In this document: piece after piece, positions 6,470-37,096 of the stretch
How positions within the stretch are numbered: position 1 is the stretch's first letter
Layout of the letters: every line of letters begins with the position of its first letter
Virus record (IMG/VR): IMGVR_UViG_3300045988_135485
DNA: 64,000 nucleotides
Reading direction: 5' to 3' (one strand)
From: a virus
Position numbers and translations under genes: made by a program
The notes under the pieces: generated by a model
Database searches by the model: none
What the model saw: the letters and a program-made list of their open reading frames with translations, nothing else
What the model was told of the DNA's origin: nothing

Positions 6470-9247
6470 TTACTTTAAACTAAATTGATAGTCAAGTGCT
6501 TTTAGAACATCCTCATCACTCATTATCTTTCCCCAGACCTCTTCTGGTAACCAATCTACTTCCGGAGCCTCGTCCAGTTCTATTTGACCGAGCGGAGCCT
6601 TTTCCTTGTCAAACGGCTCAAAAGTTCTTCCCATTGATACAGAAGAGTTAAGTTTACAAACCTTCATTAGCCAAGGTTGGTCACACATAACTCTCTTCAC
6701 TAGGTCTCTATACTCAAGAACAAATTTACAATCTACACTGGCTACAATCTCGTCATGAACCGGAACCATAATTCTTACTTGGTCTGGTGTCCATCTCTTC
6801 TCTATTTCCTGTTGTAAATTCCACATAGCCCTCTTCGCTAGTGCGGCCGCCGTCCCTTGTATCTTCGAGTTCACGGCCTGATTCCTAGCCCGGGTTTGGG
6901 TTAATTTTATAAACTTACGGAGAAAGTTACGAACTCCTTGACTATCGTATGCATTGAGAAATTTATTTCTCATAATTTCCGCCCACAGGTCTGTTGTCTC
7001 AAACTTAAACCGTCGGTGACCATCAGGAAGGTCCACATATCCATCCTGAATCGCCGAAGATATAACGCTTAATCTCCAGTTTTCCAGCGTGGAGAATTTG
7101 CTACGATAAGCTTCTACTTTATTCCAATGTTCATCATCTGACCAGCCTAATTTTTCCTGCAAATTAGACAAGGCTCCAGAATATAGATAGCTAAAATTAG
7201 CCCCTTTCCCCAGTTCTGTTCTCGCCCATTTATAAAATTTAGCTGGCTGTAGTTGTTCTCCTTTGGTATTTACCAGATGGACTCCTTTATACTCTTCAGT
7301 TCCTTCAGGAAGATGCTTTATTGCTTTAAAGTCCTCTATGGAAAGATTCAACATCGCAGCAGCGGCGGCTGAGTGAAGGTCTCCCGGAGGAGTTGTACTG
7401 TAACATTCCACGAACTCCGGGTCTTGCGAAAGTTCACCCGGAATCACTAACTCGACGGCTGACCAGTCAGAGGACATAATTACTTGCCTATCTGGATAGT
7501 CAGCGAGATAGAATCCACGAACATAAGTAGATTCTCCGCGTTTACTTAATTGCTGCGGATTCGGGTTAGACATACTCATTCTACGAGTAGCCAATGTGGA
7601 GGAAATGCTGGGATAAACTTTACTGGTTTCCGGGTCGGTTAAATATAAGTACGGATTTAAATATAGTTTACATACTTGGTCTACTTGAGTTAATTTATTC
7701 ATACAATTTAGCAGTCTTGCCTCAGGCGTATCTTCTTCGTAAGACTCCAGCATCTTTCCTCTGGAATCTTTTCCTGACTGAATTTTACCTTTAACCTTTA
7801 TAGCCTTATGTCCCATTAAATCATAATAAATAGTTCTGCTTGGCATATAATGTACAAGGTTAATAATTCCTTTATTAACTTTTAAGTCTACGTCTTCCGT
7901 ATATGACTTTGTGATACCCCCGTTAATTTGAAGGATTTGTTTCATTACTCCTTCCGGAGAATCGTCATAATCTGGGGCATAAGCAAAGTCTTTGATTTGT
8001 TGACGGTATTTTCTCCAGTTCTTTTGGTACCAGGTTTCTGACTTCATAAGTGCTTCATTCGGTTCGACAGGAAACGGGAGAAGCTGTCTGAAAATAGTTT
8101 TTATCTCTCTTAATGTGTGGGCAGCTTTTTTTCTTTCTTCGTCTCTCTTCTTATAAACAGCCTTCAGGTCTATGTTTAATCCATAAGACTGTATATTAGT
8201 AAAGATGTCAGCCATTTTGTTCTCTTGGATAAAGAAAGTATTCCAAGCAGATGGGCAATTTTCTTGAATAAAGTCATAGAGAGCTTTATAGAGTTGAACA
8301 CACCAATAGGAATCTGACGCACCATAAAACATAACTTCTTCTCCAGTTAAATGACCCATGTGTGGTTCCTCTTGGAAATAAGGTCTATATTGCAGATACT
8401 TTTTATCTTTCAAGACAATATTTCTTTTTTTGGCATATTCAGACTTAGCCAAACATTCGTCATAGTGTTCCATTCTATAACCAAAAAAGGATTCGACAGC
8501 TTGTTTCAATCCGTACCCGATGGAGATTGACTTCAAGAATCCGTTATAAGAATGCGCAGCCTCGCTTTGTTTTCCGCAAACTTGACCAACTAACTCAGCC
8601 TGTTGTGGATTCAACTCTTGGTAGCCATCCCAGTTCTCGAAAGCTTGCGAAATGGCTGGTAGTAATTTTCTTATCTCTCCCAAGTCAGCATTACAGAATT
8701 TATCAAAGGAATAGGAATCGGAAGAGTAGGCAGATACACATAACTGTAACGTATCTATGTAATTAAAAATCTCGTAGTTATAATACATACGCATCATAAC
8801 TTTTTCAAACTGTGCATTATGGATAATTAACGTATGTTTCTGCATTTCTTCCATAAGAGAATAAATAGTTTCCCAAGCTAGTCTGTTCTCCATATCTCTC
8901 TGGTTAAGATTTATATAGTAACAAAAAGTATCTCCTTCTGGATAAATAGAAAAACCTGTAACTACTGTACGTCTAATATCAAAAACATTCTTACCAAGAG
9001 AATTAAATTTCTTTATTCCTTCATGAGCGTTCCCATTATGTGTTTCCAAATCGAATCCGGTGTATGGAGCTGTTTTTACTTTCTCAATAAGAATAGGAAG
9101 AAAGAAATCTATGTTACGCCTATCTACAAGAATTGTCTGTATGTCCTCAGTCCTATAATTCTTTAAGTTAATTGTCTTTAACATCACCCTTCTCCACAAG
9201 TTTCCAATGATACCCTCCAGTCCTGTAAGCTCTTTTATTGCAGACAT
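6470..9247 (-). CDS. polA: DNA polymerase I family (3'-5' exonuclease plus Pol A domains)
   Basis: 925 aa. Exo I motif FDLETHN; Pol A motif A DWSAVELV; motif B RTELGKGANFSYLYSG; motif C VHDE. Confidence 0.9.
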   Translation of the reverse strand: MSAIKELTGLEGIIGNLWRRVMLKTINLKNYRTEDIQTILVDRRNIDFFLPILIEKVKTAPYTGFDLETHNGNAHEGIKKFNSLGKNVFDIRRTVVTGFSIYPEGDTFCYYINLNQRDMENRLAWETIYSLMEEMQKHTLIIHNAQFEKVMMRMYYNYEIFNYIDTLQLCVSAYSSDSYSFDKFCNADLGEIRKLLPAISQAFENWDGYQELNPQQAELVGQVCGKQSEAAHSYNGFLKSISIGYGLKQAVESFFGYRMEHYDECLAKSEYAKKRNIVLKDKKYLQYRPYFQEEPHMGHLTGEEVMFYGASDSYWCVQLYKALYDFIQENCPSAWNTFFIQENKMADIFTNIQSYGLNIDLKAVYKKRDEERKKAAHTLREIKTIFRQLLPFPVEPNEALMKSETWYQKNWRKYRQQIKDFAYAPDYDDSPEGVMKQILQINGGITKSYTEDVDLKVNKGIINLVHYMPSRTIYYDLMGHKAIKVKGKIQSGKDSRGKMLESYEEDTPEARLLNCMNKLTQVDQVCKLYLNPYLYLTDPETSKVYPSISSTLATRRMSMSNPNPQQLSKRGESTYVRGFYLADYPDRQVIMSSDWSAVELVIPGELSQDPEFVECYSTTPPGDLHSAAAAAMLNLSIEDFKAIKHLPEGTEEYKGVHLVNTKGEQLQPAKFYKWARTELGKGANFSYLYSGALSNLQEKLGWSDDEHWNKVEAYRSKFSTLENWRLSVISSAIQDGYVDLPDGHRRFKFETTDLWAEIMRNKFLNAYDSQGVRNFLRKFIKLTQTRARNQAVNSKIQGTAAALAKRAMWNLQQEIEKRWTPDQVRIMVPVHDEIVASVDCKFVLEYRDLVKRVMCDQPWLMKVCKLNSSVSMGRTFEPFDKEKAPLGQIELDEAPEVDWLPEEVWGKIMSDEDVLKALDYQFSLK

Positions 9248-9707
9248 TACTTATATTACCTGGATTACAATGTTTCCTTTTACTGGCTTCAGACATGGAT
9301 TCAAAAATCTCTCCCGTTTCTACACATAGAACAGGTTTTCCATATAAAGCTGTCTGTGCTAACTTCATTTTTAAGTTTCTTAGACCATAGTTAGCATTAT
9401 AGAGGCTACTACACCATTCTAGATTTTCGACTTTGTTATTCAGTCTGTCCTCGTCTATATGGTTTACTTGTGGTAAATTATCAGGGTTAGGAATAAAAGC
9501 TTCTGCAACTAATCTGTGTATTTCTTTACCTTTATGAATAGGACGTTTATGGAAATTTATTTTTAAATAGCCGTTCGTACCTAAAAAAGGTTTTAGATTT
9601 CTTACTAAATGCTTTCTTGCATAATTCAAGCTTCTAACATTACCATAATTACTAATCTGATAATAACCTTCAAACCCTTTTATATCCTTCCATATCTCTT
9701 CTGTCAT
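9168..9707 (-). CDS. HNH homing endonuclease (free-standing)
   Basis: 179 aa with GFEGYYQISNYGNVRS N-terminal motif and VNHIDEDRLNNKVENLEW HNH core. Overlaps the polymerase 5' end. Confidence 0.75.
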   Translation of the reverse strand: MTEEIWKDIKGFEGYYQISNYGNVRSLNYARKHLVRNLKPFLGTNGYLKINFHKRPIHKGKEIHRLVAEAFIPNPDNLPQVNHIDEDRLNNKVENLEWCSSLYNANYGLRNLKMKLAQTALYGKPVLCVETGEIFESMSEASKRKHCNPGNISNVCNKRAYRTGGYHWKLVEKGDVKDN

Positions 9708-15275: not shown

Positions 15276-15898
15276 TTTTCCTCACTTTCACCGAGAGCGA
15301 CTTTAATTTGTGGATAAAGCAGGTTTTCGTGACTATCAGTATATCCCCAGATGTCGATATAGCGCAGGCACTCTTTCAGCAATCCTCGAAGTTTTTCAAT
15401 TTCTGACCGCTGGTTTGTAATAATACCTTTGGCTTCATAATTAAGCTTTTCCCGTTCCTCAACCTCAGTCCTAAGTTTGATAATACTATCACTCTGAACT
15501 GTCTGATACCAACGAGAAGATTCTAGGTCTATTCTTTGGTCAGCAACTTTTTCTTTAAGTTCATCAAGCTCTTTTTTCAGCTGTTCCTTATCATCAAGAA
15601 GCTTATTAACTATTTCACAAGCAGTATCATAGTCAATCGGTTTACCGACATAGCTTGTAACAACACGTCTAAGTTTAACAAGCTCTGCTCGCATAACCAT
15701 ATACTTGCCATAGGTAGGAACGTGAGAAAGGATTTTAACACAGTTGGCAGGATTTAATCTGTCCCATCGACTTACAAAAATATTTTTATTTATATCTTGA
15801 TAATAAAAATATCCTCTGCTGTATTTATTAAGCTTCCATTCATTTGTTAGCTTCTTTGATAATTTCTCTGCTGCTTTTTTATTAAATGTTTTAACCAT
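15272..15898 (-). CDS. hypothetical coiled-coil protein
   Basis: 208 aa ORF. Confidence 0.45.
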   Translation of the reverse strand: MVKTFNKKAAEKLSKKLTNEWKLNKYSRGYFYYQDINKNIFVSRWDRLNPANCVKILSHVPTYGKYMVMRAELVKLRRVVTSYVGKPIDYDTACEIVNKLLDDKEQLKKELDELKEKVADQRIDLESSRWYQTVQSDSIIKLRTEVEEREKLNYEAKGIITNQRSEIEKLRGLLKECLRYIDIWGYTDSHENLLYPQIKVALGESEEK

Positions 15899-16233
15899 TA
15901 AATATCCTCCTTATCTAATCCTAGAACTTCATAAACTTTTATCATTTGTTCCAACGTGGGGTTAATATTACGGAATTTGTGGAAAAGAGCTTTAAACATC
16001 TTATCAGCCTGTCTATTGTCTTTAGCTGCTTGTTCACTTTCCCAGAGATGACCATGCGGGTATTCTCCGCGATAATTGGTTTCTTTATCGAATTTTCCGT
16101 GCCAACCATATTTTTCAACTGTATAATATAAACGACCCACTTTCTCAATTGTACAGTTAAAGCCTTTATCTCTCGGGTCTGATGGTTCAAACCATACTTC
16201 TTGACCTACTTTAAACATCTTTCTTATCCTCAT
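15898..16233 (-). CDS. hypothetical protein
   Basis: 111 aa ORF. Confidence 0.45.
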   Translation of the reverse strand: MRIRKMFKVGQEVWFEPSDPRDKGFNCTIEKVGRLYYTVEKYGWHGKFDKETNYRGEYPHGHLWESEQAAKDNRQADKMFKALFHKFRNINPTLEQMIKVYEVLGLDKEDI

Positions 16234-21927: not shown

Positions 21928-22353
21928 CTAAATCTTAAAAGCTGATGTCTCTTCAAATTGAGCTTCAGTCGCTGTTTTAAGTATCATCCAAACATTTACA
22001 CCGTAATAATCGGCAATTTTTATCAAATCAAGCAAGGTCAAATCTATTGTCCCTCTTTCAATCTGATTCAACTTCGTTGAAGTGATGCCGATTTCAGCGG
22101 CTACAAATGCCAGCGGTTTCTTAGCCCGGAAATTTCGTTCCCAAGCCAGTTTTTCTCCAAGGGCGGCGTGTAACTTAGTAAGGGGCATACGACTGATAAT
22201 CTTTTTATTGCTGTTTGATTTCAAAGGCAGATTAAGTCTTTTGGCGAGATTGTATGGATATGTTCTCGAAGTTCCAAATTCTTTACTGATTTCACTAGCA
22301 GTTCTTCCGTTCTTAATCCACTCGATTATTTTATCTCTATATTCATTAAGCAT
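21928..22353 (-). CDS. XRE-family HTH transcriptional regulator
   Basis: 141 aa with LNQIERGTIDLTLLDLIKIADYYGV. Confidence 0.65.
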   Translation of the reverse strand: MLNEYRDKIIEWIKNGRTASEISKEFGTSRTYPYNLAKRLNLPLKSNSNKKIISRMPLTKLHAALGEKLAWERNFRAKKPLAFVAAEIGITSTKLNQIERGTIDLTLLDLIKIADYYGVNVWMILKTATEAQFEETSAFKI

Positions 22354-26325: not shown

Positions 26326-26541
26326 TTAGTTCAAGTTTCCTTCCACAGCTATAATTTTTGGCTCGTCCGATTCAACTGCTTGATAAAATTCATCAACACA
26401 GGTTTCATCTAAGATTTCACTTTCATTGTACATACAACGCTTAGCTAGGTAGATAGCTTCTTCTGTTGAATCAGCCTCAACTTTAACTCTCCGTTTTCTG
26501 TACATTGTCTCTGTATATTCGGCATCAACTGTAAATATCAT
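26326..26541 (-). CDS. hypothetical protein
   Basis: 71 aa ORF. Confidence 0.4.
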   Translation of the reverse strand: MIFTVDAEYTETMYRKRRVKVEADSTEEAIYLAKRCMYNESEILDETCVDEFYQAVESDEPKIIAVEGNLN

Positions 26542-27440: not shown

Positions 27441-27907
27441 AAAATATCGTCCAAAGGGATTGTCTTTTTAGCTCTGGACAAAGCTATTGCTACTGCCGCT
27501 CTCATGTCCTCTCTTGTAGCCGGAAGAGGGTTATCTTCATTGAAGAGAACTAAATATCTTTCAAAACCTAGATTTTCGCAAACTTCCACGTCTATCAAGT
27601 CAACCAGCTCTTCAACCTCTTCCGGATTTGGAACTTGACTTAGAGAGGGGATAACTCTGTAATGCAACGGATGTACACAATAAGGGACACGACAAACTTT
27701 CCTCAACTCATATCCCGGAATAAGTACCCCCTCCTCTTTCATAGTTTTTTCCAAAGCTAATCTGATTTTAGACCGATTATGATTTTCAGGAACCCAATGG
27801 CCTTTATCTAAATTAACTTTATATGATTTTAAAGTTATGATATAATCCAAAAGAGGACTATGCTCGGGATTACGTACTGCATTTTCAACTGCATTCTCTT
27901 TAGACAT
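27419..27907 (-). CDS. hypothetical protein, possible HNH-like motif (CRVPYCVHPLH)
   Basis: 162 aa ORF. Confidence 0.4.
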   Translation of the reverse strand: MSKENAVENAVRNPEHSPLLDYIITLKSYKVNLDKGHWVPENHNRSKIRLALEKTMKEEGVLIPGYELRKVCRVPYCVHPLHYRVIPSLSQVPNPEEVEELVDLIDVEVCENLGFERYLVLFNEDNPLPATREDMRAAVAIALSRAKKTIPLDDIFWKGIEK

Positions 27908-28130
27908 CTTCGTTCTCCCTAAAATATTTAGCCTCGTTAGTATAAGCTTCTAATAAACTAGTTTCATCTAATTCTGGACAACGGCTTATATAATAGCTCT
28001 GTCCATCTGGTTGAAGCATATCTTTTCCAAATTTAACGGCCTTCTCTTTTGAATCAAATTCAAGAATATACTTCAAAAGCCAGTTTTCTTTAGGAGAAAC
28101 AATATAAACCGTCCAAGTCTTTTCAGTCAT
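27900..28130 (-). CDS. hypothetical protein
   Basis: 76 aa ORF. Confidence 0.4.
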   Translation of the reverse strand: MTEKTWTVYIVSPKENWLLKYILEFDSKEKAVKFGKDMLQPDGQSYYISRCPELDETSLLEAYTNEAKYFRENEDV

Positions 28131-28149
28131 GGTCTTACTCCTCTTTCAA

Positions 28150-28593
28150 TTATATTTTTGATTTTCTCGTATAGTGGTCTCTACTATACAAGAAATCCCA
28201 ATAACGACTCAACTCATCCAACATATTATACATAGTAAGTTCTAAAGTAGATGGATTTATTTCCTGACCGTTAATCCCCTCTTTTGGAGCAACAGTTAAA
28301 AAGAGATAATTACCATCTCCGTTATCTCTCCAATACTCATAAGAACTTACGTCATAGAAAAAATAAATACTGACATGACGTAATTCCACCTTTAGTTTAT
28401 CAGCTTTTTTATAAAAGGCATAATAACCTTTTTTATTAAAACAATCGGTTCTTAAATCTACTCTGAAATCAAAAATATCTTCACCATTTTCTTCATAAAA
28501 AACATCAACTTTTGTTGATAAACTATCGGCTAGAGCTTCCCAATCGCGGCTAGAAAATACTTTTTCAGTCATAATTTTACTCCTTTTCTTCAA
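28150..28593 (-). CDS. hypothetical protein
   Basis: 147 aa ORF. Confidence 0.45.
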   Translation of the reverse strand: MKKRSKIMTEKVFSSRDWEALADSLSTKVDVFYEENGEDIFDFRVDLRTDCFNKKGYYAFYKKADKLKVELRHVSIYFFYDVSSYEYWRDNGDGNYLFLTVAPKEGINGQEINPSTLELTMYNMLDELSRYWDFLYSRDHYTRKSKI

Positions 28594-28901
28594 TCTTTTT
28601 CGCTTTCGGAATCAGAATCGCTTTCGTCTTCCTCGTCCTCGTCATCTTCGTCCTCGTCCTCATCATCTTCACAATCACAATCGCAATCATTTATACCAAC
28701 CAAGTCAAAGCACCACTCCCAGTCAAACCATAGGAGGTCGTTCATAGTTACTTCCGGGATTCCGTCAGGATAAAGTTCCCGAATCTGGGCCGAGAACGCG
28801 TCCGCTTTCCCGGCATCGACTATTTTCTCTTTTGTATTTATGGCTGTTTCACCCCATGGTTCAAATTCTTCTAAGTCAAAATCTTTACAAATCATATACA
28901 T
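28590..28901 (-). CDS. protein with extremely acidic C-terminal tail (DCDCDCEDDEDEDEDDEDEEDESDSDSESEKD)
   Basis: 103 aa ORF with a 20-bp palindrome 50 bp upstream. Confidence 0.5.
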   Translation of the reverse strand: MYMICKDFDLEEFEPWGETAINTKEKIVDAGKADAFSAQIRELYPDGIPEVTMNDLLWFDWEWCFDLVGINDCDCDCEDDEDEDEDDEDEEDESDSDSESEKD

Positions 28902-28950
28902 TTTTATGTTCCTTTCAATTTCTGTTCAATTTTCCTATTCTTCTTTCAAT

Positions 28951-28970
28951 TTGTTCCAACGTTGGAACAA
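28951..28970. promoter_or_regulatory. 20-bp perfect palindrome TTGTTCCAACGTTGGAACAA (operator-like)
   Basis: Read directly; about 50 bp upstream of the gene starting at 28901. Confidence 0.6.
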
Positions 28971-28987
28971 CTTGGGTAATTTTATGG

Positions 28988-29653
28988 TTAAATCATTTTT
29001 ATAAACTTTTTCGCCTCTTCAACTGAAAAAGCTTTGCAAAAATCATCCGGGAAATTGTTATACATTGCTTCAAAAGCTTTATCAAAGTCGCTATCAATAA
29101 AGCCGCTTAAATTATCCTCCTCTTCATCATTTCTAAAAAGATGATACTCCCAACATTCGCAGTTGGCCCAATCAGAATACTGTTTAACTTCCGTCTTTAC
29201 CCAATAATCGATTTTTTTCTTAAATTTGACAGAAATCCGATGCTTTTTAAATTCCCGGTAAATATGTGCCTTTTTTACTAAATAGAAACCTATACATCCG
29301 CAATCCCAGCCAGTTGATTTTCCAATAAACATATTCCATCCGCTGTGGTCGTAGACAGATACAGGATAAACAATAAAACCCATTTCCTCTAAACGTTTTT
29401 TGTCTGTCTGGTAATTACCAGATGACCAATCGGAAAAGTCGCCTGTTTCTGTAAGTTCATTCTCAACGTACTCACAAGAATTTTTTACAAAAAACTTACC
29501 AATAAGGCAATCACAATCGTTGCGAGGATTGTCGCAGAACCGGTCTCTGGTTATTTCAATTCTCCAGTTCTCTAATTTAGGGTCAATAACTCCCGGCAAT
29601 TCATACTGAATCTCGTTCTGGATTACGTTCTGAATCTCGTTTGCATTAATCAT
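28988..29653 (-). CDS. hypothetical Cys-rich protein
   Basis: True start MINANEIQ preceded by AGGAAAGGA. The track ORF extends through the palindrome using a TTG start. Confidence 0.45.
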   Translation of the reverse strand: MINANEIQNVIQNEIQYELPGVIDPKLENWRIEITRDRFCDNPRNDCDCLIGKFFVKNSCEYVENELTETGDFSDWSSGNYQTDKKRLEEMGFIVYPVSVYDHSGWNMFIGKSTGWDCGCIGFYLVKKAHIYREFKKHRISVKFKKKIDYWVKTEVKQYSDWANCECWEYHLFRNDEEEDNLSGFIDSDFDKAFEAMYNNFPDDFCKAFSVEEAKKFIKMI

Positions 29654-29701
29654 AACTTGTTCCTTTCCTAAAACAAATTCAAGTTGTTCAAGTGGTTTAA
29701 G

Positions 29702-29721
29702 TTGTTCCAACGTTGGAACAT
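29702..29721. promoter_or_regulatory. palindrome copy (18-bp perfect TGTTCCAACGTTGGAACA)
   Basis: About 50 bp upstream of the start at 29653. Confidence 0.6.
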
Positions 29722-29994: not shown

Positions 29995-30008
29995 TAAACC
30001 CCACTTTT

Positions 30009-30215
30009 TTAGGCAGTGGTTGCATACACTGTCCTCTCTGGTACCCCCCTACCTGAAAGTAGGCTCATATTACTCACAGCTAAAATTTTGAAGATTTTAC
30101 CATCTTGAGAAAAGACACAGAGGCGGGGGCGTTTCTCAAAAAGGTCAAATTCGAGTTTTACAACCATGTTTTGTTTGGCATATTTCACGATTAAGTCGGA
30201 TAAGTTCTTTACCAT
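30009..30215 (-). CDS. hypothetical small protein
   Basis: 68 aa with AAAGGAAACAA upstream. Palindrome and 14-bp direct repeats lie 25-85 bp upstream. Confidence 0.4.
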   Translation of the reverse strand: MVKNLSDLIVKYAKQNMVVKLEFDLFEKRPRLCVFSQDGKIFKILAVSNMSLLSGRGVPERTVYATTA

Positions 30216-30273
30216 CGTTTGTTTCCTTTCAGTTGTGTTACCATGGTTTGTTTACCATGGTTTGTTTGCTAGG

Positions 30274-30293
30274 TTGTTCCAACGTTGGAACAA
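30274..30293. promoter_or_regulatory. palindrome copy (20-bp perfect)
   Basis: About 60 bp upstream of the start at 30215. Confidence 0.6.
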
Positions 30294-30341
30294 TCTTAAA
30301 ATGAACGCGGAATCTTTTCCCAAAATTCTCCCCAAATTGAT

Positions 30342-30410
30342 TCCGGATTTTGTTTCCAAATCTCGTCCGGAATCTGGTCCGGATTCTGGTCGGAATTGTC
30401 GCCGGAAAAA
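30342..30410 (+). repeat. iteron-like direct repeats TCCGGA(A/T)T(C/T)TGG (about 4 copies, 12-bp period)
   Basis: Read directly; related CCGGATTCCTG repeats at 31226-31254 and 18-bp repeats at 31456-31510. Confidence 0.6.
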
Positions 30411-31040
30411 GTACTCAGTTTTATTCCCTCCCTAGACAAAGAGACGGAATTTTGAAAAAAAGGTATTATTCTACCTTTTTTGGACAGAAAAATGAAAAAA
30501 ACTAGAACCAAGATAGAACAATTATTTCACCATCTTTGACCAAGTTGTTGTTTTTACTCTTTTGTCTAGTTTTTTTTTGAGTTGACAGACTATTTTAAAT
30601 TGTCTCTATATAGAATTTTTTTATAAATACCCCATAGGGTATATTTATCTTATTTTTTTTCCGTGAATCTTAAAAAAAAAAAAAAATCTATTTTAGACAA
30701 AATATATAAAAACAATGGGTTAGATGTAAACTACTCCAGTGGTGTTCTAATAATGTTCAAGTGGTTAAAAAAAAGCGGGTCCTTATTTTATTGTATAAGT
30801 TTCATTTGTCTAATTTGTCAGATGTTTTTTCTTGGTTTTTCAATGGCTTATTTTATTTTCTCCTTATATAGTAAAAATGATACGTTTCAGTCTAAAAAGT
30901 GGTTCTTTGTCTAGACTGTGAAAGTGCTTGAAACGGGGAACGCCTTTGTCTATCTGGCATAGACGGGGTGTGGACGAAATTCCGCCCTTTCTTCTGTCAA
31001 GAAAATGTCTAACAGTCTAAAATCGACAAAATCTGTCAAT

Positions 31041-31057
31041 TTTCCAACGTTGGAACA
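31041..31057. promoter_or_regulatory. palindrome copy (TTCCAACGTTGGAA, 14-bp core)
   Basis: Read directly. Confidence 0.55.
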
Positions 31058-31069
31058 CGGAGTCAATTT

Positions 31070-31087
31070 TGTTCCAACGTTGGAACT
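31070..31087. promoter_or_regulatory. palindrome copy (GTTCCAACGTTGGAAC, 16-bp)
   Basis: Read directly; 29 bp from the previous copy. Confidence 0.6.
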
Positions 31088-31204
31088 TTTTCGGAATCCC
31101 TTAATATGATTCCAAAACTTTTTCGCGCGCCATCTTAAGCGGCCATTTAATATATAAATTAAAGAAAAATAAAGAAAAGATATAAAGAGAATCCCGCCCG
31201 GGAC

Positions 31205-31224
31205 TTGTTCCAACGTTGGAACAA
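31205..31224. promoter_or_regulatory. palindrome copy (20-bp perfect)
   Basis: Read directly; just downstream of the 266-aa gene. Confidence 0.6.
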
Positions 31225-31255
31225 ATCCCGGATTCCTGCCCGGATTCCTGCCCGG

Positions 31256-32056
31256 TTAGGCGGCCAACTTTTCGGTTGTTTGTATTTTCTGGTATGCCTG
31301 TGTTATCACTTCCACAACGTCGCCCGCCATCGTAACCGCCTCGCCATAACCGTAAATCTTAACAACGTTATCAAACGCGGTTATAAATTCGCTGGCTGCT
31401 TGCATCAATACGACTTCCGGCGGAAGTTGTACCGATTCCGGGCTGTTTTCCGTTCCCGTTTCTGAATCTGATTCCGGGTTAGATTCTGATTCCGGGTTAG
31501 ATTCTGATTCGTCGCTTGTGCTCGGCTTCGGCTGTTTTTCTGGCTTAAGAGCGTCATACAAACCGCGCAAACTTTCATAGTTTGCAAAAATACTGCCCGT
31601 TATTTCTGCAATAGCCGCGGCGGGCGTGCCTATTATGTTAGACTCTTTAATAATATCGCGGTTTAATTCGATTAATTTTAATGCCGCTTTAATTTTAGCG
31701 TAGATGGATGATTTTTGCGGGTGTGTCCGAATATCCGCGTTTATTTTAAATAAGTGTAAAATTATGTGCTTTCTGAATCCTTTTTCATCCATCTTTTTAT
31801 TAAAAGTCGAGTAATATAAACGGGCTTTAAAGATTGACTTTACAACGGCGAGTCCAGCTAATCCGGCTTTGTTTTCCGCGTTTGTTTCTCTTAAATAGGC
31901 ATTGTAACCCTCTTTTAAATAAGATAAAACTACTTCTTTCGGCTCGCCTGTAAAGTCATTTGACAAACGAACGTTGCGGGCGTTATTCTCATTTAACGGC
32001 TTATAGTCTGGCTTGTGCAGAGGTTGGGATGACTGGTTAATATGTTTAATAGACAT
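31256..32056 (-). CDS. hypothetical two-domain protein with acidic SESNPE-repeat linker (candidate origin-binding initiator or regulator)
   Basis: 266 aa. The linker-coding DNA (31456-31510) is itself an iteron-like 18-bp tandem array. The gene is flanked by palindromes and repeat arrays. Confidence 0.5.
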   Translation of the reverse strand: MSIKHINQSSQPLHKPDYKPLNENNARNVRLSNDFTGEPKEVVLSYLKEGYNAYLRETNAENKAGLAGLAVVKSIFKARLYYSTFNKKMDEKGFRKHIILHLFKINADIRTHPQKSSIYAKIKAALKLIELNRDIIKESNIIGTPAAAIAEITGSIFANYESLRGLYDALKPEKQPKPSTSDESESNPESESNPESDSETGTENSPESVQLPPEVVLMQAASEFITAFDNVVKIYGYGEAVTMAGDVVEVITQAYQKIQTTEKLAA

Positions 32057-32221
32057 GATTTTGACTCCTGTATATAAAATGTTAATAAATGTTAATAGCT
32101 GTTATTTTCTTAATGATTCCACAAGCCCGCAAATAGCGGTGTATATGGTTATAAATAATATTGTGTAAATAGCTAGTGTAAACATTGATGACTCCTTTTA
32201 GTTGGCTTATATGTTTATTTA

Positions 32222-32241
32222 ATGTTCTAACGTTAGAACAT
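32222..32241. promoter_or_regulatory. symmetric variant palindrome ATGTTCTAACGTTAGAACAT
   Basis: Both half-sites carry the same C-to-T change, so dyad symmetry is kept. About 165 bp upstream of the 266-aa gene. Confidence 0.55.
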
Positions 32242-32275
32242 CTTTGATTTAGGCAATATTCAGATATTACCGATA

Positions 32276-32299
32276 CGCGGGGGCGGCAACCCCCGCGCG
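32276..32299. other. GC-rich hairpin CGCGGGGG-cggcaa-CCCCCGCG (no T-tract)
   Basis: 8-bp GC stem in an otherwise AT-rich region. Confidence 0.5.
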
Positions 32300-32638
32300 G
32301 TTTGCATAAAATTTACTTATTCACAATGTGCTATAACTACCAGCCGCCCGGCTGATGACTGTTATATATAAGCTAATTAGTTACTTGTCAACTACTTTTT
32401 TGCACTTTTTTTAAAAAAAGTACACTTTTTTTAGTAAGTCATTGTTTTTGCGTGATTCTTTTTTTATGTTAAGTTTATTATAAGGTATACACACGGGCAC
32501 GTGCTATACATGCAAACGTAACCTTTACATATAGGCCGGGTGATAGGGGTGTAGGCTTTTTATATGGGAGAATAAAAAGGTGGCGGAGAACAGGCCCCGA
32601 TTCTGACCCCCCGCCCAAAACCATTTCCACCTAACACA

Positions 32639-32712
32639 ACCTACCAACTTACCTACCAACTTACCTACCAACTTACCTACCAACTTGCCTACCAACTTGC
32701 CTATCACCTGAC
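32639..32712 (+). repeat. tandem 12-bp iterons (A/G)CCTACCAACTT x about 6
   Basis: Read directly. Followed by TTCGCGGTC-type repeats (32720-32780) and CGACCAGAA repeats (32848-32900). Confidence 0.65.
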
Positions 32713-32919
32713 AGGACCGCGAACGCGAGCGCAGTCACTTTCGTGTTCGCGGTCGCATTCGCGGTCACGTTCGTTTTCATTTTTGAGGTTCTCAGCAAGG
32801 GGAACGACCACGAACACGAACGCAAAAGCCGACATAAACTTGACAAGAATCTTAACCAGAACTAGAATCTTAACAGTCGACCAGAATAATCGACCAGAAC
32901 AGGGAGGGAGAAACAACAA

Positions 32920-33402
32920 ATGGATTCAATGATAGCAGGCAACAGCCAAAATCAAAATGCACAAAATCTTAAACATAACTTCAAACAGATAACCTATACC
33001 AAAAACTCAACTAAACAGAAAGAGGAGCGTGCCTTCTTCAAGAATCGTGTTAAGAAAGCATTTCTTCACTGGTTATATTACAAGGGGCTCATTCCGTGGA
33101 AAGAGCTCCCTTCTTTTTTAGATGTTCACCACAAGCATCCGCTAGGCGGTGGCGGCAGCAATGAATTTACCAACTTGGTAATAATGGTCAGGCGAGACCA
33201 TGAGAAAATGAACAGGGAAATAATAGAGCCGCAGTTGCGTGGCATTCGGGAGGGTGAAACCAGAGAAATAACGGTTCCTTGGTGGAACTCTGAGAAGGGA
33301 GAATTTATTGATTGGGAAGGCATATACCGGTATTTGGAAGAGCTCGAACGCTCTCGACGTATGCGTTCCTCCGATCGCGCATGCGGTCGCGGAGGTAGAT
33401 GA
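32920..33402 (+). CDS. HNH endonuclease
   Basis: 160 aa with DVHHKHPLGGGGSNEFTNLVIMVRRDH core (H-N-H). Confidence 0.65.
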   Translation: MDSMIAGNSQNQNAQNLKHNFKQITYTKNSTKQKEERAFFKNRVKKAFLHWLYYKGLIPWKELPSFLDVHHKHPLGGGGSNEFTNLVIMVRRDHEKMNREIIEPQLRGIREGETREITVPWWNSEKGEFIDWEGIYRYLEELERSRRMRSSDRACGRGGR

Positions 33403-36340: not shown

Positions 36341-36882
36341 AATCTATATTTCCCCTCTTCAATAACCTTCGTTGTACCTAACCCTGTCCCCGGTTCTGTA
36401 CCTAATTCTTCTCTACTTTCCGATTCTGCGAGTTCTCTTAAGAACATTTCTCTTTGTTCAGGAAGAACCTTTTTTAGAATCTTCAAGACTTTGGATTCAA
36501 ATTCCCGCATTTGATTCAGATTTGTTGCTCTCTCCGCCAACGTAAGCAGCTTCTCCAGCTGGGTGGTTGCCGTTCTTTGGATAGAAGCTTTGTCTTTATC
36601 GTCTATTTCGTTGGATTTAAGTAATTCTTTAGTTTGCCAGTACAGATTAATTATTTCTGTCTTCAGGTCTAAGTTTGTCATGGTAGGAAGGTCTGCCTTT
36701 GACGAACTTTCTCCGGTGTTAATACTAACCGGTGGGAAAATAAGGTTGAGAGACTTTTTGATAGGTTCTGAATATGGAGATTCGGCTACATACTTAGGGT
36801 TTTTTTTTATCTCTAATCCTATAGAATAAATCTTAAAAACGGTCTCATAATTTATATCAGGATATTTATTGTTTTGAGCCAT
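36337..36882 (-). CDS. hypothetical coiled-coil protein
   Basis: 181 aa ORF immediately upstream of the primase. Confidence 0.45.
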   Translation of the reverse strand: MAQNNKYPDINYETVFKIYSIGLEIKKNPKYVAESPYSEPIKKSLNLIFPPVSINTGESSSKADLPTMTNLDLKTEIINLYWQTKELLKSNEIDDKDKASIQRTATTQLEKLLTLAERATNLNQMREFESKVLKILKKVLPEQREMFLRELAESESREELGTEPGTGLGTTKVIEEGKYRL

Positions 36883-37096
36883 GGGTCGATTCTCCGTTTA
36901 AAATTAAAGGTTCTGAAGAAGTATGGTTTTTAAAAAGTTCTACATCTGTAAGTAGAAAATATACCTTTCCTCCTAAAGTTCTTCGGGGAACTAATGAACC
37001 CTTCTTTATATAGCGGTAAATGGTTTGGTAAGAAACACCGACCCTTTTGGCAAAGCTTTCAATGCTTATGCGTTTATCTCTATCAGTAACTTCCAT
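36866..37096 (-). CDS. HTH DNA-binding protein (excisionase/AlpA/MerR-like)
   Basis: 76 aa with FAKRVGVSYQTIYRYIKKGSL. Confidence 0.6.
   Translation of the reverse strand: MEVTDRDKRISIESFAKRVGVSYQTIYRYIKKGSLVPRRTLGGKVYFLLTDVELFKNHTSSEPLILNGESTHGSKQ

Follow-up and report, generated by a model that had tools for sequence, protein, structure and literature searches.

What function resides in a gene-free stretch of DNA that lies within a block of phage early genes? The question is raised by positions 30216-31255 of the viral record IMGVR_UViG_3300045988_135485, a 64,000-nucleotide sequence referred to here as the window. This stretch, referred to as the island, sits within a block of minus-strand genes and is bordered by the stop codon of a 266-amino-acid open reading frame (ORF) and the start codon of a 68-amino-acid ORF. 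A first-pass annotation, made from the sequence alone, described repeats, a promoter-like box, a homopolymeric A-tract and palindromes in the island, and proposed a replication origin, a partition site or a non-coding RNA (ncRNA) locus. The listed features are all present, far from chance and with small errors in their coordinates. The island is non-coding, functional and conserved, and it combines a phage terminal-repeat boundary region with multi-copy early operators; both are known kinds of element, and no new category is needed. The evidence leans towards a composite junction that separates the terminal-repeat gene from the first unique early operon, and in which operators and leaders of early genes would be combined with a terminator and with a core that serves packaging or acts as an origin.

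Genomic setting and mapped terminal repeats

Judged by gene order and protein similarity, the window is a human-gut relative of JWF, Lumi, Seuss and EAb13, siphophages of ~80 kb with a direct terminal repeat (DTR) of 1.5-2.3 kb beside the primase gene. The primase-helicase of the window, which has Prim-Pol, D5_N and DUF5906 domains, has 32-45% identity with its counterparts in Achromobacter phages JWF and 2-1 (44% with both), Xylophilus phage Lumi, Caulobacter phage Seuss, and Acinetobacter phages EAb13 and TCUP2199. In addition, its TerL shares 37% identity with JWF TerL over the full length. The common gene order runs from the early genes (minus strand) through a gap to a small gene (minus), an HNH gene (plus), the primase gene (minus), a gp006-like gene (minus) and TerL (plus); in the window, the primase-helicase, gp006-like and TerL genes have these orientations, and small minus-strand gene(s) lie downstream of the primase gene. 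The record names of two related contigs, ORLP01000002 and ORRU01001467, give human gut metagenome.

Terminal repeats have been mapped in five of these relatives (JWF, 2-1, Lumi, Seuss and EAb13; Table 1). All five DTRs adjoin the 3' end of the primase gene, and in all five the primase-distal boundary falls within the non-coding DNA that separates the first unique early gene from the last repeat gene, a gap that is syntenic with the island. In Lumi, Seuss and EAb13, this boundary is in, or at most ~70 nt from, an extremely AT-rich stretch. Like the island, the five boundary gaps (0.14-1.1 kb) are found beside the primase/gp006/TerL order and contain an AT-rich core, short tandem arrays and lineage-specific iterons. 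Unlike the island, they have a mapped DTR boundary, and they share no nucleotide similarity with it and adjoin non-homologous repeat genes.

The 266-amino-acid ORF occupies the position of JWF gp002, Lumi_003 and EAb13 CDS0121. Beyond it lies a second non-coding stretch built like the island, and the AT-rich centres of the two are ~1.8 kb apart, within the 1.5-2.3 kb range, as would suit a repeat of typical length that contains the 266-amino-acid gene. By synteny, the physical end of the genome would thus lie in the island. Searches against Pfam and PHROGs assign no function to the 266-amino-acid, 68-amino-acid and neighbouring ORFs.

Three contigs from two independent assemblies break at 31163-31196 (OLQV01003717 ends at 31196, ERZ780223 NODE-3813 ends at ~31166 and NODE-265 starts at 31186). 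These breaks are 60-90 nt from the stop codon of the 266-amino-acid gene, the same distance as the repeat boundary in JWF and 2-1, and they adjoin a 34-nt hairpin and an AT-rich stretch of low coverage; they are therefore ambiguous and could reflect an assembly artefact or a true end. The contig ends of ORLP01000002 and of NODE-160 (ERZ779852; 73.9 kb, human gut) were rejected as termini, being storage-chunk boundaries, and across the family the distance from contig end to AT-rich minimum was at about chance level.

Conservation of the island

Close relatives of the window comprise five IMG/VR contigs and several ENA contigs. In two of them, the island centre (30400-31099) is 98-100% identical, compared with 85-96% for the adjacent 266-amino-acid gene, and the early genes to the left are mosaic. 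The differences among close relatives within the island are mostly changes in copy number, and the least conserved parts are the tandem arrays and the A15 tract, which vary in copy number or are absent. A more distant relative, ORLP01000002 (75.8 kb), carries the same palindrome and is 71-79% identical in patches (~75% overall); two fetched stretches of this contig were taken as contiguous, by analogy with adjacent NODE-160 chunks. Aligned with it, the island shows three footprints in an otherwise ~45% identical gap, at 30548-30735 (~80%), 30885-30935 (74%) and 31040-31137 (63-73%). Lack of conservation among relatives, which the first-pass annotation had named as speaking against a function, is thus not observed. 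A megablast search of 30000-31500 against 50,697 phage records gave no match, and an exact search for an invariant 17-mer returned unrelated coding DNA only.

The same comparison agrees with the earlier statement that no credible ORF is present. The A-tract is A15, A16 or A13TA in near-identical relatives, a change of length that shifts the frame of the poly-lysine ORF, and the DNA outside the conserved blocks is ~45% identical with many insertions and deletions in the ~75% relative. The A15 itself, which is found at 30672-30686 rather than at 30674-30688 as first given, is not kept in ORLP01000002.

A precedent for a conserved, repeat-rich region at this position exists in phage T5. Its Repeat Region 3, the region of the injection stop signal, is 1.2 kb of untranslated DNA with direct and inverted repeats and palindromes, straddles the inner terminal-repeat boundary, and is more conserved than the neighbouring ORFs (Davison, bioRxiv 10.1101/866236). 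The island resembles this region in where it lies, in size and build, and in how it is conserved, with the position relative to the repeat taken from synteny alone, and it could accordingly be a T5-like pause region, in which the repeat enters first, its gene is expressed, and transfer stalls until the repeat-encoded protein releases it. We consider this unlikely. The island has neither the paired DnaA boxes by which the T5 region is defined nor its 131-bp IRD'-spacer-IRC' arrangement; T5 belongs to an unrelated family and has a repeat of 10 kb vs ~2 kb, and the DTR here would have only ~1.5-2 kb and one gene. Furthermore, two-step injection is not known in the JWF/Lumi/Seuss/EAb13 group, and the domain searches recognised no A1/A2-like protein.

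Palindromes as candidate early operators

A perfect palindrome of 18-20 bp, TTGTTCCAACGTTGGAACAA, recurs in and around the island. In the window, the 14-bp core of this element is matched perfectly six times (28954, 29705, 30277, 31042, 31072 and 31208), compared with 0.31 expected by chance, and none of 100 shuffles reached eight. The copies, together with a symmetric two-base variant (TGTTCTAACGTTAGAACA, at 32225), are confined to 28.9-32.2 kb. Four of them (30277, 31042, 31072 and 31208) are in the island; the three palindromes listed by the first-pass annotation are thus present but represent one element, with four copies in the island and a set that reaches beyond it. The copies at 28954, 29705 and 30277 each precede a ribosome-binding site (RBS) and ATG by 50-60 nt on the minus strand, at the starts of successive early genes. 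In ORLP01000002, both the island pair and the palindromes in front of early genes are 100% identical, though their flanks are ~45% identical. The pair has a centre-to-centre spacing of 24 nt in this relative vs 30 nt here, and TTGACTCC is also kept. Single-copy matches to the palindrome in IMG/VR (L008, L009) were set aside as unrelated contigs.

A similar arrangement with different sequences extends through the family, as seen in a survey of 80 primase-anchored loci of 148 confirmed. Many lineages have their own perfect palindrome, present in 3-12 copies in the intergenic gaps downstream of the primase gene and usually 15-70 nt before an RBS and ATG. Copy numbers range from 8-12 for GTGCAATTGCAC through six for GTTGACGTCAAC and four each for TTACCTAGGTAA and GGGAAATTTCCC to three for TCCTAGCTAGGA, and examples of lineage palindromes are AAAAGTGCAATTGCACTTTT, CAAGGTTGACGTCAACCTTG, AGTTTACCTAGGTAAACT, TTTGGGAAATTTCCCAAA and TAGTCCTAGCTAGGACTA. 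A 61% relative, L022, has five copies of a hairpin with a 7-bp stem in place of a perfect palindrome, and JWF has no repeated palindrome. In the lineages with perfect palindromes, the centre of the element is palindromic too, which fits a dimer on double-stranded DNA better than an RNA hairpin, as the loop of a hairpin would not need symmetry. The presence of lineage-specific palindromes in the same places in relatives points to operators for a phage-encoded dimeric regulator. In summary, identical symmetric sites occur above chance within one transcription block, the sites are kept where their flanks have diverged, and their sequence depends on the lineage. On this comparative evidence, the palindromes are candidate operators, through which a phage-encoded dimeric regulator probably controls the early operon.

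The copy at 31208 forms the centre of the 34-nt hairpin that follows the 266-amino-acid gene. In ORLP01000002, an unrelated GC-rich hairpin takes its place at the same position, a replacement that fits a terminator role, and the hairpin at 31198-31231 is a probable terminator of the terminal-repeat gene. In the proposed mechanism, transcription would proceed on the minus strand, with this hairpin ending the repeat-gene transcript. A dimeric phage DNA-binding protein would switch the early operon by occupying the palindromes, both the pair in the island and the single copies before the following early cistrons, which may act as promoter-overlapping repressor sites or as roadblocks.

The palindromes may also serve as sites of exchange. 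In relatives that are otherwise near-identical, the early genes (27900-29400 in the window; 14500-16100 in L018) are mosaic, with blocks of 50-60% identity beside blocks of 97-100%, and the breakpoints are at palindromes. Contig 123405 contains additional cassettes bounded by palindromes. Together, these observations suggest recombination at palindromes. Many identical short sites in early-block gaps, and mosaic cassettes bounded by repeats, are also seen with the conserved inverted repeats of phiC31, the stoperators of L5 and the PeSL cassettes of T4-type phages. The sites described here differ in that they are perfectly symmetric, whereas L5 stoperators are asymmetric, and in that they have no sigma-70 promoter, which PeSL carries; in addition, the phage itself is apparently lytic.

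Several identical palindromes within ~3 kb could alternatively be centromere-like sites for plasmid-like maintenance, and their outer bases (TGTT…AACA) recall the chromosomal parS, TGTTNCACGTGAAACA. This explanation, which corresponds to the partition site of the first-pass annotation, is highly improbable. No ParA, ParB or KorB domain was found in the ~50 scanned ORFs of the window, the site is 18-20 bp long with a different centre, and the copies at 28954, 29705 and 30277, like the unrelated palindromes of relatives, front early cistrons (here at ~50-60 nt) instead of forming a single centromere cluster. Furthermore, a primase search of 185,579 bacterial genomes found no close relative, and thus neither a host nor a prophage state.

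The AT-rich core as a candidate terminus or origin

The most conserved footprint, at 30548-30735, is an AT-rich core, 99-100% identical in close relatives, in which the GC fraction falls to a minimum of 0.20 (30600-30699). It contains T9-GAGTTGACAGACTATTT, a -10-like TATATA, an ATACCC/GGGTAT hairpin followed by T8, CCGTGAATCTTAA, the A15 tract, TAGACAAAA and CAATGGGTTAGATGTAAA. T8-GAGTTGACAGACTATTT is a stretch of 25 nt that is invariant in ORLP01000002, where the footprint also holds the hairpin with T8, CCGTGARTCTTAA, one iteron and CAATGGGTTAGATRTAAA. The AT-rich centre is flanked by TTTGTCTA iterons. The word TTGTCTA, absent from the first-pass list, occurs six times in the island of 19 times in the window (p=4e-7); it is repeated in the islands of L022 and ORLP01000002, and in the ORLP01000002 alignment three copies (30694, 30806 and 30907) have kept their positions. 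An AT-rich motif that seemed to be shared with JWF (TTTTTTATA…GGTATATTTAT) was dropped, as it was not found across the family.

In the favoured reading, the ~190-bp core with its TTTGTCTA iterons would be the assembly site of a sequence-specific phage protein. This site would preferably be the region that terminase recognises and cuts, setting the terminal-repeat boundary, and possibly also the start of replication. The island (30216-31255) contains no DnaA box (TTWTNCACA), and this absence, together with the three relatives whose boundary is in or near an AT-rich core, favours a terminus or packaging role.

Iteron origins, too, have repeated short iterons around AT-rich DNA that unwinds. The core could be a replication origin, with AT-rich DNA that is melted by an initiator bound to the TTTGTCTA iterons. 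The most plausible initiator would be the P4-alpha-like primase-helicase, whose gene is 2.6 kb away; the TTGACA box and hairpin/T8 would give a short priming transcript, and the palindromes and arrays would be unrelated regulatory neighbours. This possibility is tentative and can coexist with a terminus. It draws on iterons in both orientations around a core with a GC fraction of 0.20-0.29, and on the conservation in ORLP01000002 of the 25-nt stretch around TTGACA and of the hairpin/T8. Origins of replicons with P4-type and SaPI-type primase-helicases similarly have short iterons in both orientations flanking an AT-rich stretch, with a prim-pol/D5-type primase-helicase nearby; in the window, the candidate origin is separated from the primase gene by the 2.6 kb that hold another gene and an HNH insert. 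However, the TTGACA box has a poor -10 element at a 19-nt spacer, and pac sites, that of P1 among them, likewise have iterons around a cut site.

Comparison with JWF and 2-1 bears on the same question. Each has a module in which an inverted pair of lineage-specific iterons (CCACCCAAA or CCACCACCCC) stands ~90 nt apart around an AT-rich core, accompanied by two direct copies, outside the DTR and away from the cut site. The module is single in the sequence examined (for JWF, ~10 kb from the start and ~7.5 kb at the end; for 2-1, 3.6 kb and ~6.2 kb, respectively), and its iterons (79611-79975 in JWF, L002; 80494-80938 in 2-1, L017) differ in sequence but conserve their geometry. The DTR boundary of these phages is between the inverted repeats GGCGTGGTAGCGG and CGCTACCACGCC. 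In addition, the L022 island (7862-8404) has three consensus DnaA boxes (TTATCCACA once and TTATACACA twice) vs 0.9 expected in the whole locus. Both the separate module of JWF/2-1 and the DnaA boxes of L022 favour an origin, to be set against the lack of such boxes in the island described here. The C-terminal domains of the JWF and 2-1 primases are 80% identical despite the differing iterons, which counts against the origin reading and also made a comparison of iteron and primase co-variation between the two phages uninformative. In the window (1-37000), the strongly negative GC skew of the minus-strand genes (-0.2 to -0.43) ends at ~30 kb and is about zero for the minus-strand genes at 31-37 kb. 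A stop of skew where genes continue on the minus strand would suit an origin, but gene class, together with non-coding and plus-strand inserts, confounds this change.

The promoter-like box and the hairpin within the core, both listed by the first-pass annotation, are present. TTGACA is at 30582-30587 and TATATA at 30607-30612, and because their spacer is 19 nt, the pair is outside a sigma-70 scan of 16-18 nt spacers, which does not list it (30582-30612). The hairpin ATACCC-CATA-GGGTAT (30627-30642) is followed by T8 at 30653-60. In ORLP01000002, the -35 box is conserved and the -10 box partly so, and the hairpin stem is kept with a loop of CCTA vs CATA. With a promoter-like box and a terminator-like hairpin and U-run 35-75 nt apart, the core could encode a small ncRNA, for example a plus-strand transcript of ~45 nt that is antisense to read-through early transcripts. 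Such an RNA is, in our estimate, quite unlikely. The changes in the relative are not compensatory, the -10 box is weak and distant, and the fold z-scores of the AT-rich core (+0.06 and -1.84) are no better than those of shuffles. A scan with Rfam 15, as the first-pass annotation had proposed, found no family, with only two sub-threshold microRNA matches on the palindromes, and scores that stayed far from gathering (21 bits vs thresholds of 63 and 100). A tRNA and tmRNA scan was likewise empty. A conserved non-coding region stands. Of the functions first proposed, an origin is a candidate reading for the core, a partition site is not supported, and an ncRNA locus gained no positive evidence beyond the conserved promoter-like box and hairpin.

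Several observations weigh against the composite junction. The window shows one collapsed repeat copy, which leaves the terminus to be placed by synteny, and the 266-amino-acid ORF has no homology by BLASTP to the terminal-repeat genes of other lineages. The second non-coding stretch, the expected site of the other boundary, has no TTGTCTA iterons. In JWF and 2-1, the boundary is 60-100 nt from the repeat gene and 400-500 nt away from the iteron/AT module; given this distance, core and cut site may be separate modules, with the core an origin. With regard to the operators, the promoter scan gave no convincing sigma-70 promoter overlapping any palindrome, and in several cases across the family the distance from palindrome to RBS is too short for one. 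The candidate regulators with helix-turn-helix domains, of 76 amino acids (36866-37096, HTH_17/MerR-like) and 141 amino acids (21928-22353, HTH_3), are domain hits only, with no link to the palindrome, and the former has a homologue in L022, though L022 uses a different element.

Table 1. Positions of the features of the island and its surroundings in the window, and mapped direct terminal repeats (DTRs) of relatives in their own genome coordinates.
Feature	Position	Strand	Remarks
Palindrome TGTTCCAACGTTGGAACA	30275..30292		59 nt 5' of ATG 30215
Palindrome pair (31040-31057, 31070-31087)	31040..31087		Conserved TTGACTCC in between
Palindrome outside the island	28952..28969		50 nt 5' of ATG 28901
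Palindrome outside the island	29703..29720		~50 nt 5' of ATG 29653; then 9-bp variable array
Variant palindrome TGTTCTAACGTTAGAACA	32222..32239		~38 nt 5' of RBS and 27-codon ORF
34-nt hairpin with palindrome copy	31198..31231	-	25 nt past stop of 266-amino-acid gene; T-rich DNA next on minus strand; fold z=-3.8
Conserved AT-rich core	30548..30735		Candidate packaging/terminus site or origin
Six TTGTCTA iterons: 30433-, 30562+, 30694-, 30806+, 30907+, 30946+	30433..30952		Both orientations; spread across AT-rich centre
Second conserved block AGTCTAAAAAGTGGTTCTTTGTCTAGACTGTGAAAGTG	30885..30935		74% identity, ORLP01000002 alignment
Third conserved block …CTTTTTCGCGCGCCATCTTAAGC	31088..31137		ORLP01000002 alignment
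14-bp tandem array TTTACCATSGTTTG, 4.2 copies	30208..30267	-	Tandem Repeats Finder (TRF); minus strand gives C/A-rich leader, RBS and ATG of ORF 30215<-30009
12-bp array on CCGGAWTC	30338..30410		Copy number varies
Tandem array CCCGGATTCCTG, 2.4 copies	31227..31255		TRF; copy number varies
68-amino-acid ORF	30215-30009	-	First unique early ORF
266-amino-acid ORF	31256..32056	-	Placed inside terminal repeat by synteny
Second non-coding stretch	32057..32919		Candidate primase-proximal repeat boundary
JWF DTR, 1466 bp	right copy starts 80076		Gap 79094-80136
Phage 2-1 DTR, 1542 bp	starts 81170		Gap 80554-81266
Lumi DTR, 2298 bp			PhageTerm (PMC9959647); gap 80102-81239
Seuss DTR, 1748 bp			Annotated
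EAb13 DTR, 2177 bp			PMC10508131; boundary inside AT-rich core of gap 2033-2778

Tandem arrays and neighbouring features

Palindromes tend to precede C/A-rich tandem arrays of variable length, in relatives as well as in the window, and the 14-bp repeat of the island belongs to this class. The 14-bp direct repeat (CCATGGTTTGTTTA/G) is found at 30241-30268 as first reported, with a third, degenerate copy that overlies the start codon; two full copies are present here and five in contig 119754. A 9-bp array (TTCAAGTTG, 3.3 copies, 29678-29707) separates the palindrome at 29705 from the start codon that follows and is expanded several-fold in contig 123405. The 12-bp array noted in the first-pass annotation is also seen by TRF (30359-30396, 3.2 copies). 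Its word CCGGAWTC occurs five times in the island of 19 times in the 64 kb (p=1e-5), the array has 1-4 copies in relatives, and the L022 island holds similar GATTCCGG arrays. CCGGATTCCTGC is present in one or two copies among close relatives. These short C/A-rich arrays would act as slippage-prone leaders or spacers with unconstrained copy number. An 18-bp tandem repeat within the 266-amino-acid gene (31467-31510, encoding SESNPE repeats) also holds the CCGGAWTC word of the flanking non-coding arrays.

The second non-coding stretch (32057-32919) contains an AT-rich core at ~32360-32480, a 12-bp array (ACCTACCAACTT, 5.4 copies, 32639-32703), GTTCGCGGTCAC in 2.4 copies, a GC hairpin at 32278-32300 and the variant palindrome. 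It does not align with the island, and its identity between close relatives, 76-90% with many insertions and deletions, is far below the conservation of the island. AGTTGACA, present in both stretches, is not significant (four occurrences vs 1.9 expected). Following the variant palindrome by ~38 nt, a 27-codon hydrophobic ORF (MFTLAIYTILFITIYTAICGLVESLRK, 32104-32187, minus strand) with a good RBS is possibly a genuine small early gene.

Between the repeat module and the primase gene is a plus-strand ORF with a weak match to HNH endonucleases (32920-33402), and JWF and 2-1 have two HNH endonucleases in the same slot, which may be a recurrent insertion point for homing endonucleases. Elsewhere in the window, an ORF for a NUMOD4/HNH_3 endonuclease (9168-9707) extends over the last part of the DNA polymerase A gene. 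The ORF 15898-16233 has a domain similar to the C-terminus of phage ProQ (E=1.4e-12), and the ORF 26326-26541 has one similar to DpnD/PcfM (E=2.6e-5), whose 24.6 bits fall marginally short of the Pfam cut-off of 25.0.

Meaning for the phage family

A broader proposal, which is speculative and rather doubtful at present, concerns the whole of this large and mostly uncultured family of siphophages with long terminal repeats: a lineage-specific palindrome of 18-22 bp and a variable C/A-rich leader before many early cistrons would allow one dedicated phage protein to silence, or set the timing of, the entire operon by which a lytic phage takes over its host. The same sites would double as junctions for cassette shuffling, and the iteron/AT island would be a T5-like checkpoint that couples DNA entry, first expression and the start of replication.

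Besides JWF, Lumi, Seuss and EAb13/Mystique, the group has at least 148 relatives known from metagenomes, and it includes phages now used against Acinetobacter and Achromobacter. For these phages, the analysis supplies a candidate operator of 18-20 bp with seven sites, a conserved core of 190 bp and the rule that the palindrome is particular to each lineage. These are handles for finding the regulator, for phage engineering, in the choice of safe insertion points and the recognition of undeletable parts, and for the annotation of genome ends in metagenomic assemblies.

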